64,000 nt of DNA from Gemmatimonadota bacterium (GTDB lineage: Bacteria > Gemmatimonadota > Gemmatimonadetes > Palauibacterales > Palauibacteraceae). How positions within the stretch are numbered: position 1 is the first letter of the stretch; each line of letters starts with the position of its first letter. Below the pieces are notes generated by a model. The model was not told where the DNA came from. It made no database searches and saw only the letters and a list, made by a program, of their open reading frames with translations. Of the stretch, positions 39,051 to 44,474 are shown in pieces. The translations under genes and the position numbers were made by a program. Location of the stretch: the NCBI GenBank assembly GCA_046757485.1, contig JBHHYJ010000003.1, positions 14,866-78,865 on the forward strand. Direction: 5' to 3'.

Positions 39051-40508
39051 TCAGTAGGTGGGCATCTCGGGATCGATCTCCTGGGCCCAGGCCAGGATCC
39101 CACCCCGCAGGTTCACCGCGTTCGTAAAGCCGATGCTGCGCAGATAGGCCACCGCCCGGGCGCTCCGGCCCCCGGATCGGCAGTGGATGACGAGCTCTCC
39201 CTCGCGATCGATCTCCTCCGCGCGCTCGGGGACTTGGTCGAGGGGGATGAGCCGCGCGCCGGCCAAGCCCAGGTTGCAGATCTCCCACTCGTACGGCTCT
39301 CGGACGTCGATGAGCTGGAGCGGGGCTCCGTTCTTCAGCTTGGCGCTCAGCTCCGCGACATCGATCTCGGGCACCGTCTCTTCCTCCTCTTCCTCCCTCC
39401 CGACGCCGCAGAAGAGCTCGTAGTCGATCAGCTCGGTCAGGGTGGGCTCGTCGCCGCAGACGGGGCAGTCGGGGTCGCGGGCGATCTTGACCTCCCGGAA
39501 CTCCATGCGCAAGGCGTCGAGGAGCAGGAGTCGACCCACGAGAGGGTCGCCGATCCCCAGGATCAGCTTGACCGCCTCGGCCGTCTGGATCGTCCCCACG
39601 ATCCCCGGCAGCACCCCCAGCACGCCCGCGTCCGCGCAGCTCGGGACGAGGCCGGCGGGAGGGGGCTGCCGGAAGAGGCACCGGTAGCAGGGCCGACCCG
39701 GCAGGCCGAAGACGGAGACCTGCCCCTCGAAGCGGAAGATCGCCCCCCAGACGGTCGGAATCCCCAGAAGCACGGCCGCGTCGTTCACCAGGTAGCGGGT
39801 CGGGAAGTTGTCGCTCCCGTCCACGACCAGGTCCCAGCCTGTGAAGACCTCGAGCGCGTTCTGCGAGTCGAGTCGGTTCTCGTACGTGACGATCTCCACC
39901 TCGGGGTTCAGCGCCTCGAGGCGTCGGCGGGCGGAAGCGAGCTTGGACTCGCCCACCGCCTCGGTGTCGTGCAGCACCTGTCGCTGGAGGTTCGTGAAGT
40001 CGACCGCGTCATGATCCACGATGCCGATGCGGCCCACGCCGGCCGCCGCCAGGTAGAGGCCGAGGGGAGATCCGAGCCCGCCCGCCCCGATGAGGAGCAC
40101 GCGGGCCGCCTTGAGCTTCTGCTGGCCCTCCACGCCGACCTCGGGGATCATCAGGTGCCGGCTGTAGCGCTGGAGCTCCTCGGGGCTCAGCTCGGCGGCC
40201 GGAGACGAGGCGTCCGGGCGGGTCGCGGAGCGCCCTCCGGCGATGGAGGGGACGATCCGCAGCTCGCCTCCCTCCGGGAGCCGGGCCTCCTCCGGGCTCA
40301 GCTCGCGGAGGTTGCGCTCGCCCACGTACACGTTGACGAACCGGCGCAGCTCGCCGTCTTCGTCGTACAGCTGGGCTCGAAGCGGCTCGTTCTCCTCCGT
40401 GAGCCGTTCCAGCGCCTCGCCCGCCGACGAGGCCTCCACCTCCACCCGCGACCGCCCGTCCACGAAGGAGCGCAGCGGCGTGGGGATTCGGACCGTCACC
40501 TTCGCCAT
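39051..40508 (-). CDS. tripartite fusion: MoaD/ThiS/CysO-like sulfur-carrier domain (ends ..SIAGG) + MoeZ/MoeB-type E1 adenylyltransferase + rhodanese
   Basis: Residues 1-92 have a beta-grasp carrier pattern ending in GG. Then YSRHLMIPEVG, GAGGLGSP, CYRC and CPVC zinc pairs, and PSCADAGVLG. The C-terminal rhodanese has the CRSGGRS loop. SD GGAGGAAGG lies upstream of the ATG. Confidence 0.9.
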   Translation of the reverse strand: MAKVTVRIPTPLRSFVDGRSRVEVEASSAGEALERLTEENEPLRAQLYDEDGELRRFVNVYVGERNLRELSPEEARLPEGGELRIVPSIAGGRSATRPDASSPAAELSPEELQRYSRHLMIPEVGVEGQQKLKAARVLLIGAGGLGSPLGLYLAAAGVGRIGIVDHDAVDFTNLQRQVLHDTEAVGESKLASARRRLEALNPEVEIVTYENRLDSQNALEVFTGWDLVVDGSDNFPTRYLVNDAAVLLGIPTVWGAIFRFEGQVSVFGLPGRPCYRCLFRQPPPAGLVPSCADAGVLGVLPGIVGTIQTAEAVKLILGIGDPLVGRLLLLDALRMEFREVKIARDPDCPVCGDEPTLTELIDYELFCGVGREEEEEETVPEIDVAELSAKLKNGAPLQLIDVREPYEWEICNLGLAGARLIPLDQVPERAEEIDREGELVIHCRSGGRSARAVAYLRSIGFTNAVNLRGGILAWAQEIDPEMPTY

Positions 40509-40656: not shown

Positions 40657-41124
40657 TCAACCGATCCGCACGGGACGCTCGACGAACGTGCCTTCCTTCA
40701 GCTTCCAGACGCGCCCGTCCCGGGCCCGGCCGCGGCTCACCTCGACGATCAGGTAATGATACCAGGGCCAGGCGAGCTTCCGGTCCGTGGCCGAGGGCAC
40801 CGGCCTCGCGTCGGGGTGGGAGTGGTAAAAGCCGAGCACCTTCGGCCCGCCGGCCTCTTCCTCCTCCAGAAGACGGCGGAGCGTTTCCGGGTCCAGCCGG
40901 TAGCGGTCGTTCCGTCCCGGCCATCGGTTGGCCGACGCTTCCAGGCGGGTGACGCGCCGCTCCTCGCCCTCGAGCCTCCCGAGCAGCACCCCGCACGCCT
41001 CGCGGGGGTACGCGCGCGCCAGCTCCTCACGAACCCGGGCCAACAGCCGACCCGGGATCACCAGGCTGTCGCCGGGAGCCGGCGACGGAGCGACCTCTCC
41101 GCCCGGGCTCACTTGCTCCACCAC
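40657..41124 (-). CDS. mec: JAMM/MPN+ metallopeptidase (Mec+-like)
   Basis: Conserved Glu (REACGVLLG) and HSHPDARPVPSATD (HxHx7Sx2D). Overlaps the cysM stop by 16 nt. Confidence 0.85.
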   Translation of the reverse strand: MVEQVSPGGEVAPSPAPGDSLVIPGRLLARVREELARAYPREACGVLLGRLEGEERRVTRLEASANRWPGRNDRYRLDPETLRRLLEEEEAGGPKVLGFYHSHPDARPVPSATDRKLAWPWYHYLIVEVSRGRARDGRVWKLKEGTFVERPVRIG

Positions 41125-42098
41125 GGGCCGCCCAGGTACCGGGTGCCGGCATCCGGGAGCACGGGGACGATCGTGCCGTGCTCGAGCCGGGCCGCCACTC
41201 GCAGGGCGGCCGCATAGGCGGCGCCGGACGAGGGCCCGACCAGGAGCCCCGCCTCCCGCGCGAGCCGCACGGCGTGCTCCTGGGCCTCCTCCGTGGCCAC
41301 GCCGAGCCGCTCGTGCGCCACGCTGTCGTCATAGATCGCGGGCCGGAGCGCGGTCTCCATGTGCTTGAGCCCCTCGAGTCCGTGCAGCGGTTCCGCCGGC
41401 TCCACGGAGACGATTCGCACGGTGGGCCGGAGCTCCCGCAGCCTTCTCCCCGTCCCGACCAGCGTGCCGCTCGTCCCCAGGCCGGCCACGAAGTGGGTCA
41501 ACCGGCCACGGGTCTGGGCCCAGATCTCCGTCGCCGTGCCGAGGTAATGGGCTCTCCAGTTCTCCGCGTTCGCGTACTGGTCGGCGTACCAGAAGCGCCG
41601 CGGATGGGCGGCCGCCAGGCGCCGCGCCCGCTGAATCGCTCCATCCGTCCCCTCCAGCGGATCGGTGAGCACCAGCTCCGCGCCGTACGCCCGGAGGGTG
41701 CCCAGGCGCTCCGGGCTCGCGTTGGCGGGCAGGCAGAGAGTGACCGGGAATCCGATCGCCGAGCCCAGCCACGCGTAGGCGATCGCCGTGTTTCCCGAGC
41801 TCGCATCCAGGAGTCGCCGTTCGGGCAACATGCCCTCGCGAAGCGCCCGCCGGACGATCCGCCAGGCGGGACGATCCTTGACCGAGCCCCCCGGGTTGAA
41901 CCACTCCGCCTTCCCCAGGATCCGGACCCGCGGGCCCGGGGATGGGAGCGGGAAGAGCGGCGTGCCGCCGATCCGCTCCACCAGCGCGCGCGCCGTCGGC
42001 CCCAGCCCGAGGCCGGCCGCCTCATCCCGCCGGGCGCCGAAGGTCGTCCGCGGGGTTCCGCCCATCCTAAGAGGCTGTGTCCTCTTCTCCATGCTCAT
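41109..42098 (-). CDS. cysM: PLP-dependent cysteine synthase, CysM type
   Basis: GGSVKDRPA PLP-lysine motif, GNTAIAYA, GTSGTLVG. 329 aa; the start may be the second ATG, 2 codons downstream. Confidence 0.9.
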   Translation of the reverse strand: MSMEKRTQPLRMGGTPRTTFGARRDEAAGLGLGPTARALVERIGGTPLFPLPSPGPRVRILGKAEWFNPGGSVKDRPAWRIVRRALREGMLPERRLLDASSGNTAIAYAWLGSAIGFPVTLCLPANASPERLGTLRAYGAELVLTDPLEGTDGAIQRARRLAAAHPRRFWYADQYANAENWRAHYLGTATEIWAQTRGRLTHFVAGLGTSGTLVGTGRRLRELRPTVRIVSVEPAEPLHGLEGLKHMETALRPAIYDDSVAHERLGVATEEAQEHAVRLAREAGLLVGPSSGAAYAAALRVAARLEHGTIVPVLPDAGTRYLGGPWWSK

Positions 42099-42134
42099 CC
42101 GCCCTCGGCAAGACCCACGCGCGCGGCCTCCTGC

Positions 42135-42152
42135 GGTTCTTCAACAGGCTTC
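42135..42152 (+). repeat. 18-nt intergenic motif GGTTCTTCAACAGGCTTC, copy 2
   Basis: Exact copy of 2933-2950. Lies between the leader terminator and the cysM start codon. Confidence 0.6.
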
Positions 42153-42163
42153 CAGGGGAAACG

Positions 42164-42193
42164 AAAAAGGCCGCGAGCCGGAGCTCGCGGCCT
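42164..42193 (-). terminator. intrinsic terminator in the cysM leader
   Basis: On the minus strand: AGGCCGCGAGC-TCCG-GCTCGCGGCCT followed by TTTTT. A perfect 11-bp stem about 65 nt upstream of the cysM ATG and about 285 nt downstream of the rpe stop. Confidence 0.7.
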
Positions 42194-42218
42194 GCGCCGC
42201 ATCCGGTGAAACACCGAG

Positions 42219-42329
42219 CTACGGCCGGCTTGCCGCGGGCTCCCCGCTCGAGGGGAGGGTACAAGCGCACGGACACCGGGGGCGGAACGCCCCGCGACCG
42301 GTCGGCTCGCTCTGGCGGCAACGGCTCAC
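42219..42329 (-). promoter_or_regulatory. candidate Cys-codon-rich leader peptide ORF (attenuator) upstream of cysM
   Basis: SD AGAGGA, 5 nt, GTG, then a 36-codon ORF VSRCRQSEPTGRGAFRPRCPCACTLPSSGEPAASRP ending 25 nt before the terminator stem. It has 4 Cys codons, 3 of them within 5 codons (TGT CCG TGC GCT TGT). 30 of 36 codons end in G/C. Confidence 0.35.
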
Positions 42330-42364
42330 GACGATCCTCTTCTTCAGGTGTGTCGGTGCGATCC

Positions 42365-42437
42365 CTCCCGGGCCGAACCTGTCTGTGTACGCGGAGGATC
42401 GGAGAAAGGTTCCGGCAAAGGGGGGGCGGCCCGGGAG
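42365..42437. other. long imperfect GC-rich hairpin downstream of rpe
   Basis: Outer arms CTCCCGGGCC/GGCCCGGGAG (10 bp, perfect). Inner arms CCGAACCT/AGGTTCCGG (one bulge). 73 nt in total. Confidence 0.5.
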
Positions 42438-42478
42438 CGCTCCGAGTATGCGACCCGCTCGCGTTCTGTGGCCGCCTG

Positions 42479-43165
42479 CTACAGCCGGACGGCGAGGGAG
42501 CGACGCAGCGCCTCCAGGTTCTCCTCGACGGAGCCCGAGCCCCGAAAGACGGAGGATCCCGCCACGAGGACCGAGGCGCCGGCCTGCACCGCCAGCGGGG
42601 CCGTCTCCGGGTCGATCCCGCCGTCCACCTGCACGTGGAGCTGTCGCAGGCCGAGCTCCGCCGCCACCCGCCGGACCTCCTCCACCTTGCGCAGCGCCGC
42701 ATGAATGAACGCTTGCCCCCCGAAGCCGGGGTTCACCGTCATCACGAGGACCAGATCCACCAGCGGAATCACTTCGTGCAGGGCGGATACGGGCGTGGCG
42801 GGGTTGATCGCCACCCCGGCCCGGGCCCCGAGACGACGGATGTCGGTGAGATCACGGTGCAGGTGGATCGATGCCTCCTGGTGGACGGTGAGGAGGTCCG
42901 CCCCCGCATCGGCGAACGCGCCCAGCAGCCGATCGGGACGTTCGATCATGAGGTGGACGTCCAGGAACCCTTCGGTCGCGGGTCGCAGCGAGCGAACCAC
43001 GGGAAGCCCGACGCTGATGTTCGGAACGAAGTGGCCGTCCATCACGTCCACGTGAATCCAGTGCTCCCCGGCCGCCTCGACCTCGGCCACCTGCTCGCCC
43101 AGCCGCGTGTAGTCGGCCGCCAGGATGGAGGGGGCAATGAGCGTTCCCTCGGGCATCACCCGCAT
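42479..43165 (-). CDS. rpe: ribulose-phosphate 3-epimerase
   Basis: APSILAADYTRLGEQV..HVDVMDGHFVPNIS..; 228 aa, colinear with Rpe. Confidence 0.95.
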   Translation of the reverse strand: MRVMPEGTLIAPSILAADYTRLGEQVAEVEAAGEHWIHVDVMDGHFVPNISVGLPVVRSLRPATEGFLDVHLMIERPDRLLGAFADAGADLLTVHQEASIHLHRDLTDIRRLGARAGVAINPATPVSALHEVIPLVDLVLVMTVNPGFGGQAFIHAALRKVEEVRRVAAELGLRQLHVQVDGGIDPETAPLAVQAGASVLVAGSSVFRGSGSVEENLEALRRSLAVRL

Positions 43166-43247
43166 CGTACGTACTCCTCTCTCAGAGCGTCGGTGGCCAT
43201 CGAGCCGACCCGACGGCCTCGAGGCCCGGATCCGCGGCGACTTCGAG

Positions 43248-44474
43248 TCAGATCACTCCCAACCGCTTGCCCACCGTGTCCAGCGCGTCCAGCGTGCGGT
43301 CCAGGTGCTCCCGATCATGTCCGGCCGAGACCTGGCACCGGATGCGCGCCTGCCCCTTCGGGACGACCGGGTACCCGAACCCGATCACGAACGCTCCCTC
43401 CTCCAGGAGCTGGGTGGAGAGGGAGATCGCCGTGGCCGTCTCGCCGACCACCACGGGGACGATCGGGGTCTCCCCCTCGATCGGCCGGTAGCCGAGGCGG
43501 GCGAGCTGCTCCCGGAAGTAGGCCGTGTTCTCGCGGAGCTTGGCCACGCGCTCCGGATGCGACTCGAGATGATCGATCGCCGCCAGGGCGCCGCACGCGG
43601 AGTGGGGTGGAATCGCGTTCGTGAAGAGCTGCGTGCGTGAGCGCTGGACCAGGTACTCCACGACCTCCCGGCTGCCGGCGGTGAAGCCACCCGCCATTCC
43701 CCCCAAGGCCTTTCCCAGGGTGGAGGTGACGACGTCCACCTCCCCGTGGATCCCGAAGTGCTCGGGCGTACCGCGGCCCGTTTCGCCCAGCACGCCCGTG
43801 GCGTGGGAGTCGTCGATCGCCATGACCGCGTCGTACCGGTCGCACAGGTGGCGAATCTCGACCAGCGGCGCGATCTCCCCCTCCATGCTGAAGATCCCGT
43901 CGGTGATGACGAACCGGTGCCGGGCGTTCCCGGACTCCTTCAGGGCGTCCTCCAGAGAGTCCATGTCCATGTGCCGGTAGATCCTCCGCCGGGCCTTGCA
44001 GAGACGAATCCCGTCGATGATGGAGGCATGGTTCAGCTCGTCGCTGATGATCGCGTCCTCCTCGGAGAGAAGCGGCGCGAACAGGCCCTCGTTGGCGTTC
44101 CAGCAGGAGGTGTACGTCAGGGAGGCGGGCATCTCCAGAAAGTCGGCGATCCGGTCCTCCAGCTGCCGGTGGATGTCGAACGTGCCGCAGATGAAGCGCA
44201 CCGACGAGGTGCCGGCTCCGTACCTGTCCACTCCCTCCCGGACGGCGCTCATGACGTCCGGCTCGTCACACAGCCCCAGATAGTTGTTCGAGCACAGGTT
44301 CACGACCTCGCCGTGCCCCTCCAGCTTCACCACGGCGGACTGGCGACCCAGGATGTGCTGGAGCTCCTTGTACACCCCGCGCTCGTGCATCTCCCGCAGC
44401 TCGGCGGCCAGTCTCTCCTGCAGCCCCCGGTTGCCGTCACGCGTCGCCACTTCGGATTCCTGATAGAGGGTCAT
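43248..44474 (-). CDS. kbl: glycine C-acetyltransferase (2-amino-3-ketobutyrate CoA ligase)
   Basis: Start at ATG 44474 (MTLYQESEV..). NNYLGL, PLP-lysine context TLGKALGG. Operon with tdh. Confidence 0.93.
   Translation of the reverse strand: MTLYQESEVATRDGNRGLQERLAAELREMHERGVYKELQHILGRQSAVVKLEGHGEVVNLCSNNYLGLCDEPDVMSAVREGVDRYGAGTSSVRFICGTFDIHRQLEDRIADFLEMPASLTYTSCWNANEGLFAPLLSEEDAIISDELNHASIIDGIRLCKARRRIYRHMDMDSLEDALKESGNARHRFVITDGIFSMEGEIAPLVEIRHLCDRYDAVMAIDDSHATGVLGETGRGTPEHFGIHGEVDVVTSTLGKALGGMAGGFTAGSREVVEYLVQRSRTQLFTNAIPPHSACGALAAIDHLESHPERVAKLRENTAYFREQLARLGYRPIEGETPIVPVVVGETATAISLSTQLLEEGAFVIGFGYPVVPKGQARIRCQVSAGHDREHLDRTLDALDTVGKRLGVI

Follow-up and report, generated by a model that had tools for sequence, protein, structure and literature searches.

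Why is a cysteine synthase gene preceded by a non-coding gap of 380 nucleotides (nt) that holds a short open reading frame (ORF) with clustered cysteine codons and, behind it, an intrinsic terminator? The question is raised by a 64,000-nt stretch of DNA from a member of the Gemmatimonadota (GenBank assembly GCA_046757485.1, contig JBHHYJ010000003.1, positions 14,866 to 78,865), hereafter the window, in which rpe, the gap and cysM follow one another on the minus strand. An earlier note on this DNA, made from the letters alone, had read the gap as a candidate attenuator responding to the supply of Cys-tRNA. That reading is now supported in silico by conservation and by folding: with a probability that we put at roughly 0.7, the element would be a ribosome-mediated transcription attenuator, responding to charged tRNA-Cys and thereby controlling read-through into the cysM-mec-cysO::moeZ operon. 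The analysis establishes which sequence elements are present, how they are conserved and spaced, and which alternative folds they are predicted to form.

Leader ORF and terminator in the window

Four features define the element:
42335-42340, minus strand: Shine-Dalgarno (SD)-like AGAGGA, read directly, 5 nt before the leader GTG
42219-42329, minus strand: leader ORF, read directly, 36 codons from GTG (42329-42327) and then TAG (42221-42219), encoding VSRCRQSEPTGRGAFRPRCPCACTLPSSGEPAASRP
42261-42275, minus strand: sensor codons TGT CCG TGC GCT TGT (C-P-C-A-C), read directly
42164-42193, minus strand: intrinsic terminator from a terminator scan, with stem AGGCCGCGAGC / GCTCGCGGCCT, loop TCCG and then TTTTT

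The coordinates given in the earlier note for the SD-like sequence, GTG, ORF, Cys cluster, hairpin and T-run, and the length of the gap, were all confirmed on the minus strand. The leader has a fourth Cys codon, a TGC at 42320-42318, and no two of its Cys codons are adjacent. The last of them, the TGT at 42263-42261, precedes the leader stop by 13 codons. A recount again gave G or C at the third position in 30 of the 36 codons. The expectation that TGT would be the rarer Cys codon in such GC-rich DNA is borne out: among 27 long window genes with high GC content at third codon positions, Cys makes up 0.69% of codons and TGT 16% of Cys codons.

The terminator hairpin (42193-42168) has 11 pairs, nine of them G-C, and runs into the T-run at 42168-42164. 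It starts 25 nt after the leader stop, and the end of the T-run lies 65 nt from the ATG at 42098. It is the sole terminator-like site in 41000-44000, and its stem pattern is found once in the 64-kb window.

The note had also cautioned that ORFs arise easily by chance in high-GC DNA, and the caution was well placed. An open 36-codon frame at about 70% GC has roughly even odds, as estimated from base composition, and at least three Cys codons within six appear in about 7% of shuffled 330-nt upstream stretches (5.6 of 78). Taken alone, the window ORF and its 3-Cys cluster are not significant and are weak evidence; support for an attenuator comes from their conservation in relatives, not from the window ORF by itself. 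The leader ORF has no Pfam match, and no second copy of the element, such as a Cys regulon would have, was found in the 64-kb window.

Conservation among relatives

The DNA around CysM homologs was fetched, and a scan of genome contigs with CysM gave at least three Gemmatimonadota loci, L003 (see below) among them. The closest CysM proteins among the matches listed are from Gemmatimonadota, at 67-77% identity. Aligning orthologous cysM upstream regions, a check that the earlier note had proposed, found the leader ORF, its Cys codons and the helices conserved: a Cys-cluster leader ORF and a terminator lie between rpe and cysM in 11 of the 14 readable Gemmatimonadota-type loci. Ten loci besides the window thus have rpe, a gap of 200-500 nt and then cysM-JAB-ThiS/ThiF/rhodanese. 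The eleven distinct leader peptides are as follows:
Window: VSRCRQSEPTGRGAFRPRCPCACTLPSSGEPAASRP
L001: MTLLRPLARSGSPHGGRGGHCACSTFPSSAGFAVRRL
L084: VIHRAIDPSRGRGCRATCRCTTSLRERSVAMAQRGRH
L082: MCIDSHNHTDATARPDTRPFGHACGCCCGCASGCACLARPPGGLAVPGT
L205: MKGVNRCGCPCPCGCHGCACPAPPEGGLAVPPT
L206: MEKHGQSVETFERSRCRCGCPRRGSVPGRR
L207: ...ATGATCACTCTVFTDGGLAARRR
L209: MTPQARKAGTTNSPAVCSCRISSRRRGTAVRA
L215: MSAFGFHAFAACCCTGHARQRRVAVRA
L217: MNAYRSDIDAACSCPGRLRKRKVAVRA
L218: MSDFEFNVFAACYCPGHARQRRVAVRA

What is conserved in these leaders is a small number of codons and their spacing. All eleven carry the motif TGY-NNN-TGT (C-x-C), which is invariant, and have TGT as their last Cys codon. An in-frame stop follows that TGT after 13 codons in eight of them and after 14, 17 and 10 in the remaining three. 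The 13-codon spacing is kept although the antiterminator strand (see below) lies one codon nearer the stop in L209, L215, L217 and L218 than in the window, L082 and L207. The terminator 5' arm follows the last Cys codon at a distance of 63-84 nt, which is 71-77 nt in nine of the eleven. Cys accounts for 10.5% of the codons in the eleven leaders, 15-fold over the window genes, and the share of TGT among Cys codons is 53% against 16%. Conservation does not extend to the N-terminal halves of the peptides, where L215 and L218 show many non-synonymous differences, and the number of Cys residues ranges from 2 to 8. Among the relatives, adjacent Cys codons (CC or CCC) occur only in L082 and L215. In our alignment A1, which has a mean column identity of 62%, gaps in the ORF part measure 3 and 9 nt, both multiples of three. 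SD-like purine runs precede the leader starts of L001, L082, L215 and L218.

Two further loci, L219 and L220 (1773-2003), are like L218 but for a tandem duplication of 21 nt (TFAACYC) that keeps the frame. It adds a second C-Y-C and takes the Cys codons of the sensor from two to four.

The terminator is conserved too. Its helix is 97% paired across the eleven leaders, and eight of ten pairs are invariant, seven of those being paired in every sequence. The earlier note had suggested looking for compensatory stem changes, and the terminator shows them at two pairs: A1 columns 96-122 appear as A-U, G-C and C-G, and columns 103-115 change from A-U to G-C in L206 and L207. The antiterminator, by contrast, gave no covariation beyond shuffles (see below). 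In every leader the hairpin has a T-run behind it and precedes the cysM start by 19-112 nt, and the cysM SD of the relatives is downstream of the hairpin and outside the helix. The T-run of L084, L215 and L218 stands only 19-24 nt from the cysM ATG, too close to admit a promoter, and in these three loci cysM can therefore be expressed by read-through alone.

A control set came from a scan of metagenome DNA with the pattern GCCGCGAGC-N(3-9)-GCTCGCGGC-N-TTTT. As a source of homologs it failed, since this GC-rich stem is widespread among terminators and no cysM lay downstream in any of the 120 loci obtained; they served as controls instead. Even by a looser criterion, an ORF with CC or CxC ends nearby in only 7 of 140 unrelated terminators with an identical stem.

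Predicted antiterminator and alternative folds

Three further elements of the window leader were predicted by folding:
42232-42243, minus strand: antiterminator strand GGAGCCCGCGGC (codons G-E-P-A-A), from RNAfold, resembling the terminator 3' arm
42240-42257, minus strand: local hairpin CTCCCC (42257-42252) / GGGGAG (42245-42240), in the minimum free energy (MFE) fold of the untranslated leader
42196-42225, minus strand: small hairpin holding the leader stop codon and enclosed by the antiterminator helix, from RNAfold

The pairing of GCCCGCGGC (42240-42232) with the terminator 5' arm had been assigned by eye. RNAfold recovers it in the window and extends it to 42243-42232 with 42191-42180, with one C.A mismatch. 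To imitate a stalled ribosome, each RNA was trimmed to begin 15 nt past the first base of the final Cys codon and to stop short of the 3' arm. Folded in this form by RNAfold, every leader has 5-12 bases of its 5' arm paired with the antiterminator strand. The energy gain in the window is -17.3 kcal/mol; when the upstream part is dinucleotide-shuffled the gain is -8.1 +/- 3.3 kcal/mol, and 1% of the shuffles do as well. In ten of the eleven leaders the gain is reached by at most 4.5% of shuffles. In the fixed register of A1 the antiterminator is 76% paired, compared with 38-49% for partners slid by 1-3 columns. Its strand has the consensus GGRGS-YCGCGGY near the 3' end of the ORF, and in the relatives YCGCGGY stands 3-6 codons before the stop. 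That the stem hardly varies is to be expected if each base of the 5' arm must fit two partners.

The local hairpin CTCCCC/GGGGAG extends into the 5' end of the antiterminator strand and might, in the model, correspond to region 1:2 of a classical attenuator. Small hairpins holding the stop codon are predicted at the same place in most relatives, their sequence not being conserved.

We then calculated equilibrium base-pair probabilities for three states, namely an untranslated leader, a ribosome at the stop codon and a ribosome at a Cys codon. The probability of the terminator is 0.55-1.0 in ten of the eleven untranslated leaders, L001 being the exception, and 0.80-1.0 in all eleven with the ribosome at the stop. 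When the ribosome occupies either of the last two Cys codons, upstream pairing of the 5' arm is predicted in ten of the eleven (probability 0.44-1.0), while L084 shows no significant antiterminator. In the window, a ribosome at TGC 42269 gives a terminator probability of 0.00 and an antiterminator probability of 0.80. Thus the mutually exclusive folds that the earlier note had proposed to look for follow the logic of an attenuator in 10 of 11 leaders, but the result for the window itself depends on the footprint assumed for the ribosome.

The MFE fold of the untranslated window leader (-90.8 kcal/mol) contains the terminator, and opening the 3' arm by force costs about 13 kcal/mol. In this fold GCGGCAA (42236-42230) pairs with TTGCCGC near the ORF start, a modelled interaction that would hold the antiterminator strand much as region 1 does in the trp leader. 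Because such upstream pairings hold the strand, untranslated RNA is predicted to terminate too.

A model of cysteine-responsive termination

Judged by sequence, all the defining features of a classical leader-peptide attenuator are present. From them we infer that the ORF is translated, that ribosomes stall in it and that termination responds to cysteine. In the proposed mechanism, the leader RNA would be translated from the GTG at 42329. With Cys-tRNA plentiful, the ribosome would reach the TAG at 42221-42219, where its footprint would mask the CGCGGC core (42237-42232) of the antiterminator; the terminator at 42193-42168 would then fold and RNA polymerase would stop at the T-run. With Cys-tRNA scarce, the ribosome would stall at the C-x-C codons, most sensitively at the rare, wobble-read TGT. 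A stall at least 21 nt upstream of the antiterminator strand would leave that strand free to pair with the 5' arm and loop (42191-42180), no terminator would form and cysM would be transcribed.

The geometry is compatible with this scheme. An A-site at TGT 42263 lies 21 nt before the start of the antiterminator strand, and the stop codon 11 nt past its end. A ribosome protects roughly 12-15 nt, so with the A-site at 42263 the strand should be free, 21 nt exceeding the protected length.

Weighing the evidence

Several observations weigh against this attenuator. The eleven leaders are related by descent, and the counts given above are therefore not counts of independent events. Antiterminator covariation does not go beyond column shuffles (71 of 500 reach the observed score), for which reason the helix rests on pairing potential, and the L084 antiterminator is not significant against shuffles. 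In the window the helix is weakened by the central C.A mismatch, and the three-state result hinges on the assumed footprint: with the ribosome at TGT 42263 the terminator probability is 0.82 and that of the antiterminator 0.14. The SD is weak or absent in L206, L207, L209 and L217. A sigma-70 consensus scan of 41000-44000 found no promoter, and the sequencing runs that contain the locus include no RNA run, only DNA runs from a hydrothermal-vent metagenome, the source of the window DNA.

The three loci that have no element count on the same side. L081, whose CysM is the closest relative (77% identity), has no leader, the rpe stop lying 7 nt before the cysM ATG (540-640). L002 has a different upstream gene and no element, and L216 (CysM 68% identical) has neither leader nor terminator. 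Since the closest relative is without a leader, the sequences indicate that the attenuator was gained or lost within the lineage of L081 and the window. In L216 (1398-2003), a MarR-family gene whose product has a Cys-rich C-terminus (...GCCTSCGHLRGDGCLGEEYSCG...) stops 30 nt short of cysM and, by its position, may encode a protein regulator in place of the RNA one. One more Gemmatimonadota metagenome-assembled genome, L003 (CysM 73% identical), was left unscored, a scaffold gap of 100 N (2868-2967) replacing the rpe-cysM spacer.

Could the terminator be conditional for another reason? If a protein or small ligand bound the GGRGC-YCGCGGY / GCCGCGAGC region, the Cys codons would be incidental. 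The unusual nucleotide conservation of stem and antiterminator would suit this, with eight of ten stem pairs invariant at about 70% CysM identity, as would C-terminal peptide conservation that largely mirrors the RNA strand; and the MarR-family gene replacing the leader in L216 suggests that protein regulators of the operon exist. Yet strong stem conservation is expected anyway if the bases of the 5' arm pair in two helices, no Rfam riboswitch or leader family matches, and such binding fails to explain the invariant in-frame TGY-NNN-TGT, the 13-codon spacing of the stop, the in-frame indels or a Cys count of 2 to 8 in otherwise unconserved peptides. We consider it unlikely. The variable Cys count and the unconserved N-terminal parts, with many non-synonymous differences between L215 and L218, tell against an independent small gene for a Cys-rich metal-binding or redox peptide, with its own terminator and with cysM on a separate promoter. 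The metallothionein-like homologs in L082 (...ACGCCCGCASGCAC...) and L205 (...CGCPCPCGCHGCAC...) lend this idea some colour, the terminator after the ORF is strong, and in the window a promoter could fit into the 65-100 nt between the T-run and the cysM start. But the spacers of 19-24 nt in L084, L215 and L218 force read-through, the ORF at its 3' end also imitates the terminator arm and no Pfam family matches, which makes such a gene very unlikely.

That the experimentally demonstrated Cys short-ORF attenuators all act on translation (10.1101/834739) is the argument for a mycobacterial type of control, in which stalling would open a structure hiding the cysM ribosome-binding site. The T-run in 11 of 11 leaders, the position of the hairpin 19-112 nt upstream of the cysM start, the SD outside the helix and the 19-24-nt spacers indicate instead that the output is transcriptional rather than translational, and we give the translational alternative hardly any more weight than chance. 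Chance itself would mean an accidental ORF ahead of an ordinary terminator of the rpe unit, its Cys cluster a coincidence of GC-rich sequence. The window ORF by itself allows this, its 3-Cys cluster being matched in about 7% of shuffles and an open frame of that length having roughly even odds, as does the recurrence of the same stem as a generic terminator in more than 120 unrelated metagenome contigs. However, the terminator lies 285 nt past the rpe stop, a separate hairpin (42476-42425) stands directly after rpe, and ten other diverged loci show the same Cys motif, reading frame, stop spacing and antiterminator, against 7 of 140 controls. With a mean column identity of 62% in A1, these are not near-identical strains. 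Chance is thus the least probable of the explanations considered.

Comparison with known systems

Textbooks illustrate the coupling of transcription and translation with leader-peptide attenuation, whose enterobacterial representatives include trpL, hisL, leuL, thrL, pheL and ilvL. The cysteine-sensing attenuator proposed here resembles the trp/his/leu type in having a leader ORF rich in codons for the regulated amino acid and a terminator before the first structural gene. In the models, the antiterminator likewise shares the 5' arm of the terminator, the position of the ribosome selects the helix and untranslated RNA terminates. It differs in the amino acid, cysteine; in its spaced C-x-C ending in a rare TGT rather than a consecutive run of codons; in an antiterminator strand that lies inside the last codons of the ORF; and in its occurrence in Gemmatimonadota. 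No similarity of sequence or to an Rfam model links the two.

The T-box and S-box (S-adenosylmethionine, SAM) riboswitches of Firmicutes also act by premature termination in the 5' leader of sulfur amino-acid genes, through competing terminator and antiterminator helices, but there the RNA senses uncharged tRNA or SAM directly, without translation. Searches with Rfam, including its T-box and SAM models, found nothing relevant in 41000-44000 even at E-values up to 10, no match at gathering scores in the whole window and nothing relevant in four homologous loci.

Cysteine-specific leader ORFs have been described in Actinobacteria. In mycobacteria, leaderless polycysteine short ORFs lie upstream of cysteine-metabolism operons (Canestrari et al. 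2020, 10.1101/834739; Mol Microbiol 114:93); this work is also cited in PMC13236596. Cysteine-limited stalling on their Cys codons relieves repression of the genes downstream, and two Cys codons suffice (10.1101/834739). At the locus dissected, control is exerted on translation: stalled ribosomes prevent formation of a duplex in which a downstream SD would be hidden, and the authors contrasted this with terminator models (10.1101/834739). The present element shares with these the Cys short ORF upstream of a cysteine-metabolism operon. It differs from that locus, which is leaderless and has consecutive Cys codons, in its SD, its spaced C-x-C and a terminator with T-run well upstream of the cysM SD. 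Neither consecutive Cys codons nor an SD-sequestering duplex is found in the window, and AGAGGA argues for canonical initiation rather than a leaderless mRNA. Comparative genomics of Actinobacteria had earlier uncovered ORFs with Cys codons near the stop upstream of cys and cbs operons (Seliverstov et al. 2005, PMC1262725). Those leaders have no conserved terminator hairpins, Rho-dependent termination being only suggested (PMC1262725), unlike the conserved intrinsic terminator and antiterminator seen here.

In the full-text literature outside subscription journals we found no report of a Cys leader peptide with an intrinsic terminator and antiterminator, and none in Gemmatimonadota. Within that coverage, a cysteine-specific leader-peptide transcription attenuator, supported in silico, would be a new case of the trp/his/leu-type mechanism. 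If correct, it would show how poorly studied phyla (Gemmatimonadota and probably Chloroflexota) regulate the CysO-dependent cysteine pathway, and would imply that transcription and translation are coupled in the former and probably also in the latter. It would also offer a compact natural cysteine sensor, of two or three codons and about 100 nt of RNA, for reporters or synthetic biology. Annotators also gain a rule by which regulatory short ORFs upstream of cysM that lack annotation can be found.

Occurrence beyond Gemmatimonadota

At least five Cys codons within six are found upstream of cysM in 3 of 78 loci from other phyla, where 0.00 are expected. Cys clusters were rejected as a general feature upstream of this CysM clade: counts at lower thresholds do not exceed chance, with 8 loci found against 5.6 expected for at least three in six. 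A scan combining a Cys short ORF with a terminator gave 5 loci in sense and 2 in antisense orientation in other phyla, both small numbers. C-x-C-P-G and the codons TGC-NNN-TGT are common to Thermoflexus, the Chloroflexota locus L047 and the Gemmatimonadota loci L217 and L218. It is conceivable, at a little under even odds, that the window element belongs to an undescribed multi-phylum family of Cys leader-peptide transcription attenuators guarding the CysO/CysM/Mec route. Its sensor would need only two or three Cys codons, spaced apart and with a wobble-read TGT as the last, and the family may share descent across phyla.

Hairpins with T-runs lie downstream of Cys leader ORFs in the Anaerolineales L022 (2668-2950; ...FCCCCCCEMGR) and L024 (2712-2950; MFKAICCCCCHKMGR), in Thermoflexus L045 and L048 (...HCICPGRGR; about 2580-2900), in the Chloroflexota L055 (about 2580-2900) and in an Anaerolineaceae bin (L047, 2774-2990; leader ...CLCPGQGR). 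In the Acidobacteriota L049 (999-1064), L012 (2886-2984) and L065 (2922-2987), ORFs ending ...TRCCCCC, ...TRCCC or ...TRCCCSL abut the start of the cysM match, and a local hairpin without T-run forms over the Cys codons. These Acidobacteriota ORFs may, from their arrangement, be a translational variant.

The cysM operon and its surroundings

The genes flanking the gap in the window are these:
42479-43165, minus strand: rpe, upstream of the 380-nt gap before cysM
41109-42098, minus strand: cysM, a pyridoxal-phosphate cysteine synthase of the CysM/CysK family (Pfam PALP; best NCBIfam match cysM, below its cut-off)
40657-41124, minus strand: JAB/Mec-like protease (Pfam and NCBIfam profile matches)
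39051-40508, minus strand: ThiS-ThiF-rhodanese fusion, CysO::MoeZ-like (Pfam and NCBIfam profile matches)

The operon order cysM-JAB-ThiS/ThiF/rhodanese recurs in relatives. The ThiS/CysO-like sulfur carrier (residues 6-92) forms the N-terminus of the MoeZ-like ThiF-rhodanese enzyme, a fusion of about 490-505 residues that is also found in relatives, and the gene of the JAB/Mec-like protease sits just upstream of it. The Gly-Gly C-terminus of the fused carrier would have to be cleaved for its release.

The leader starts only 46-81 nt from the rpe stop in L215, L217 and L218. This closeness, together with the abutting of rpe and cysM in L081, suggests that in those four loci transcription probably enters from the rpe operon. 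In the window the rpe stop is immediately followed by a GC-rich hairpin, GGCGGCC...GGCCGCC (42425-42476, minus strand), with CCCCCCTTTG behind it, and this hairpin might serve as a weak rpe terminator. L001 and L084 have comparable hairpins behind rpe; L215, L217 and L218 have none. Long antisense or overlapping ORFs across the rpe-cysM gap had no Pfam matches and were rejected as real genes.

The cysM start is ambiguous, with in-frame ATG codons at 42098, 42092 and 42065. The database gene call for CysM, of 318 residues, corresponds to the ATG at 42065, and among the matches listed the CysM homologs align only from residue 31-41 or so onward. A GTG at 42119 opens a seven-codon frame whose TGA overlaps the ATG at 42098 (ATGA).

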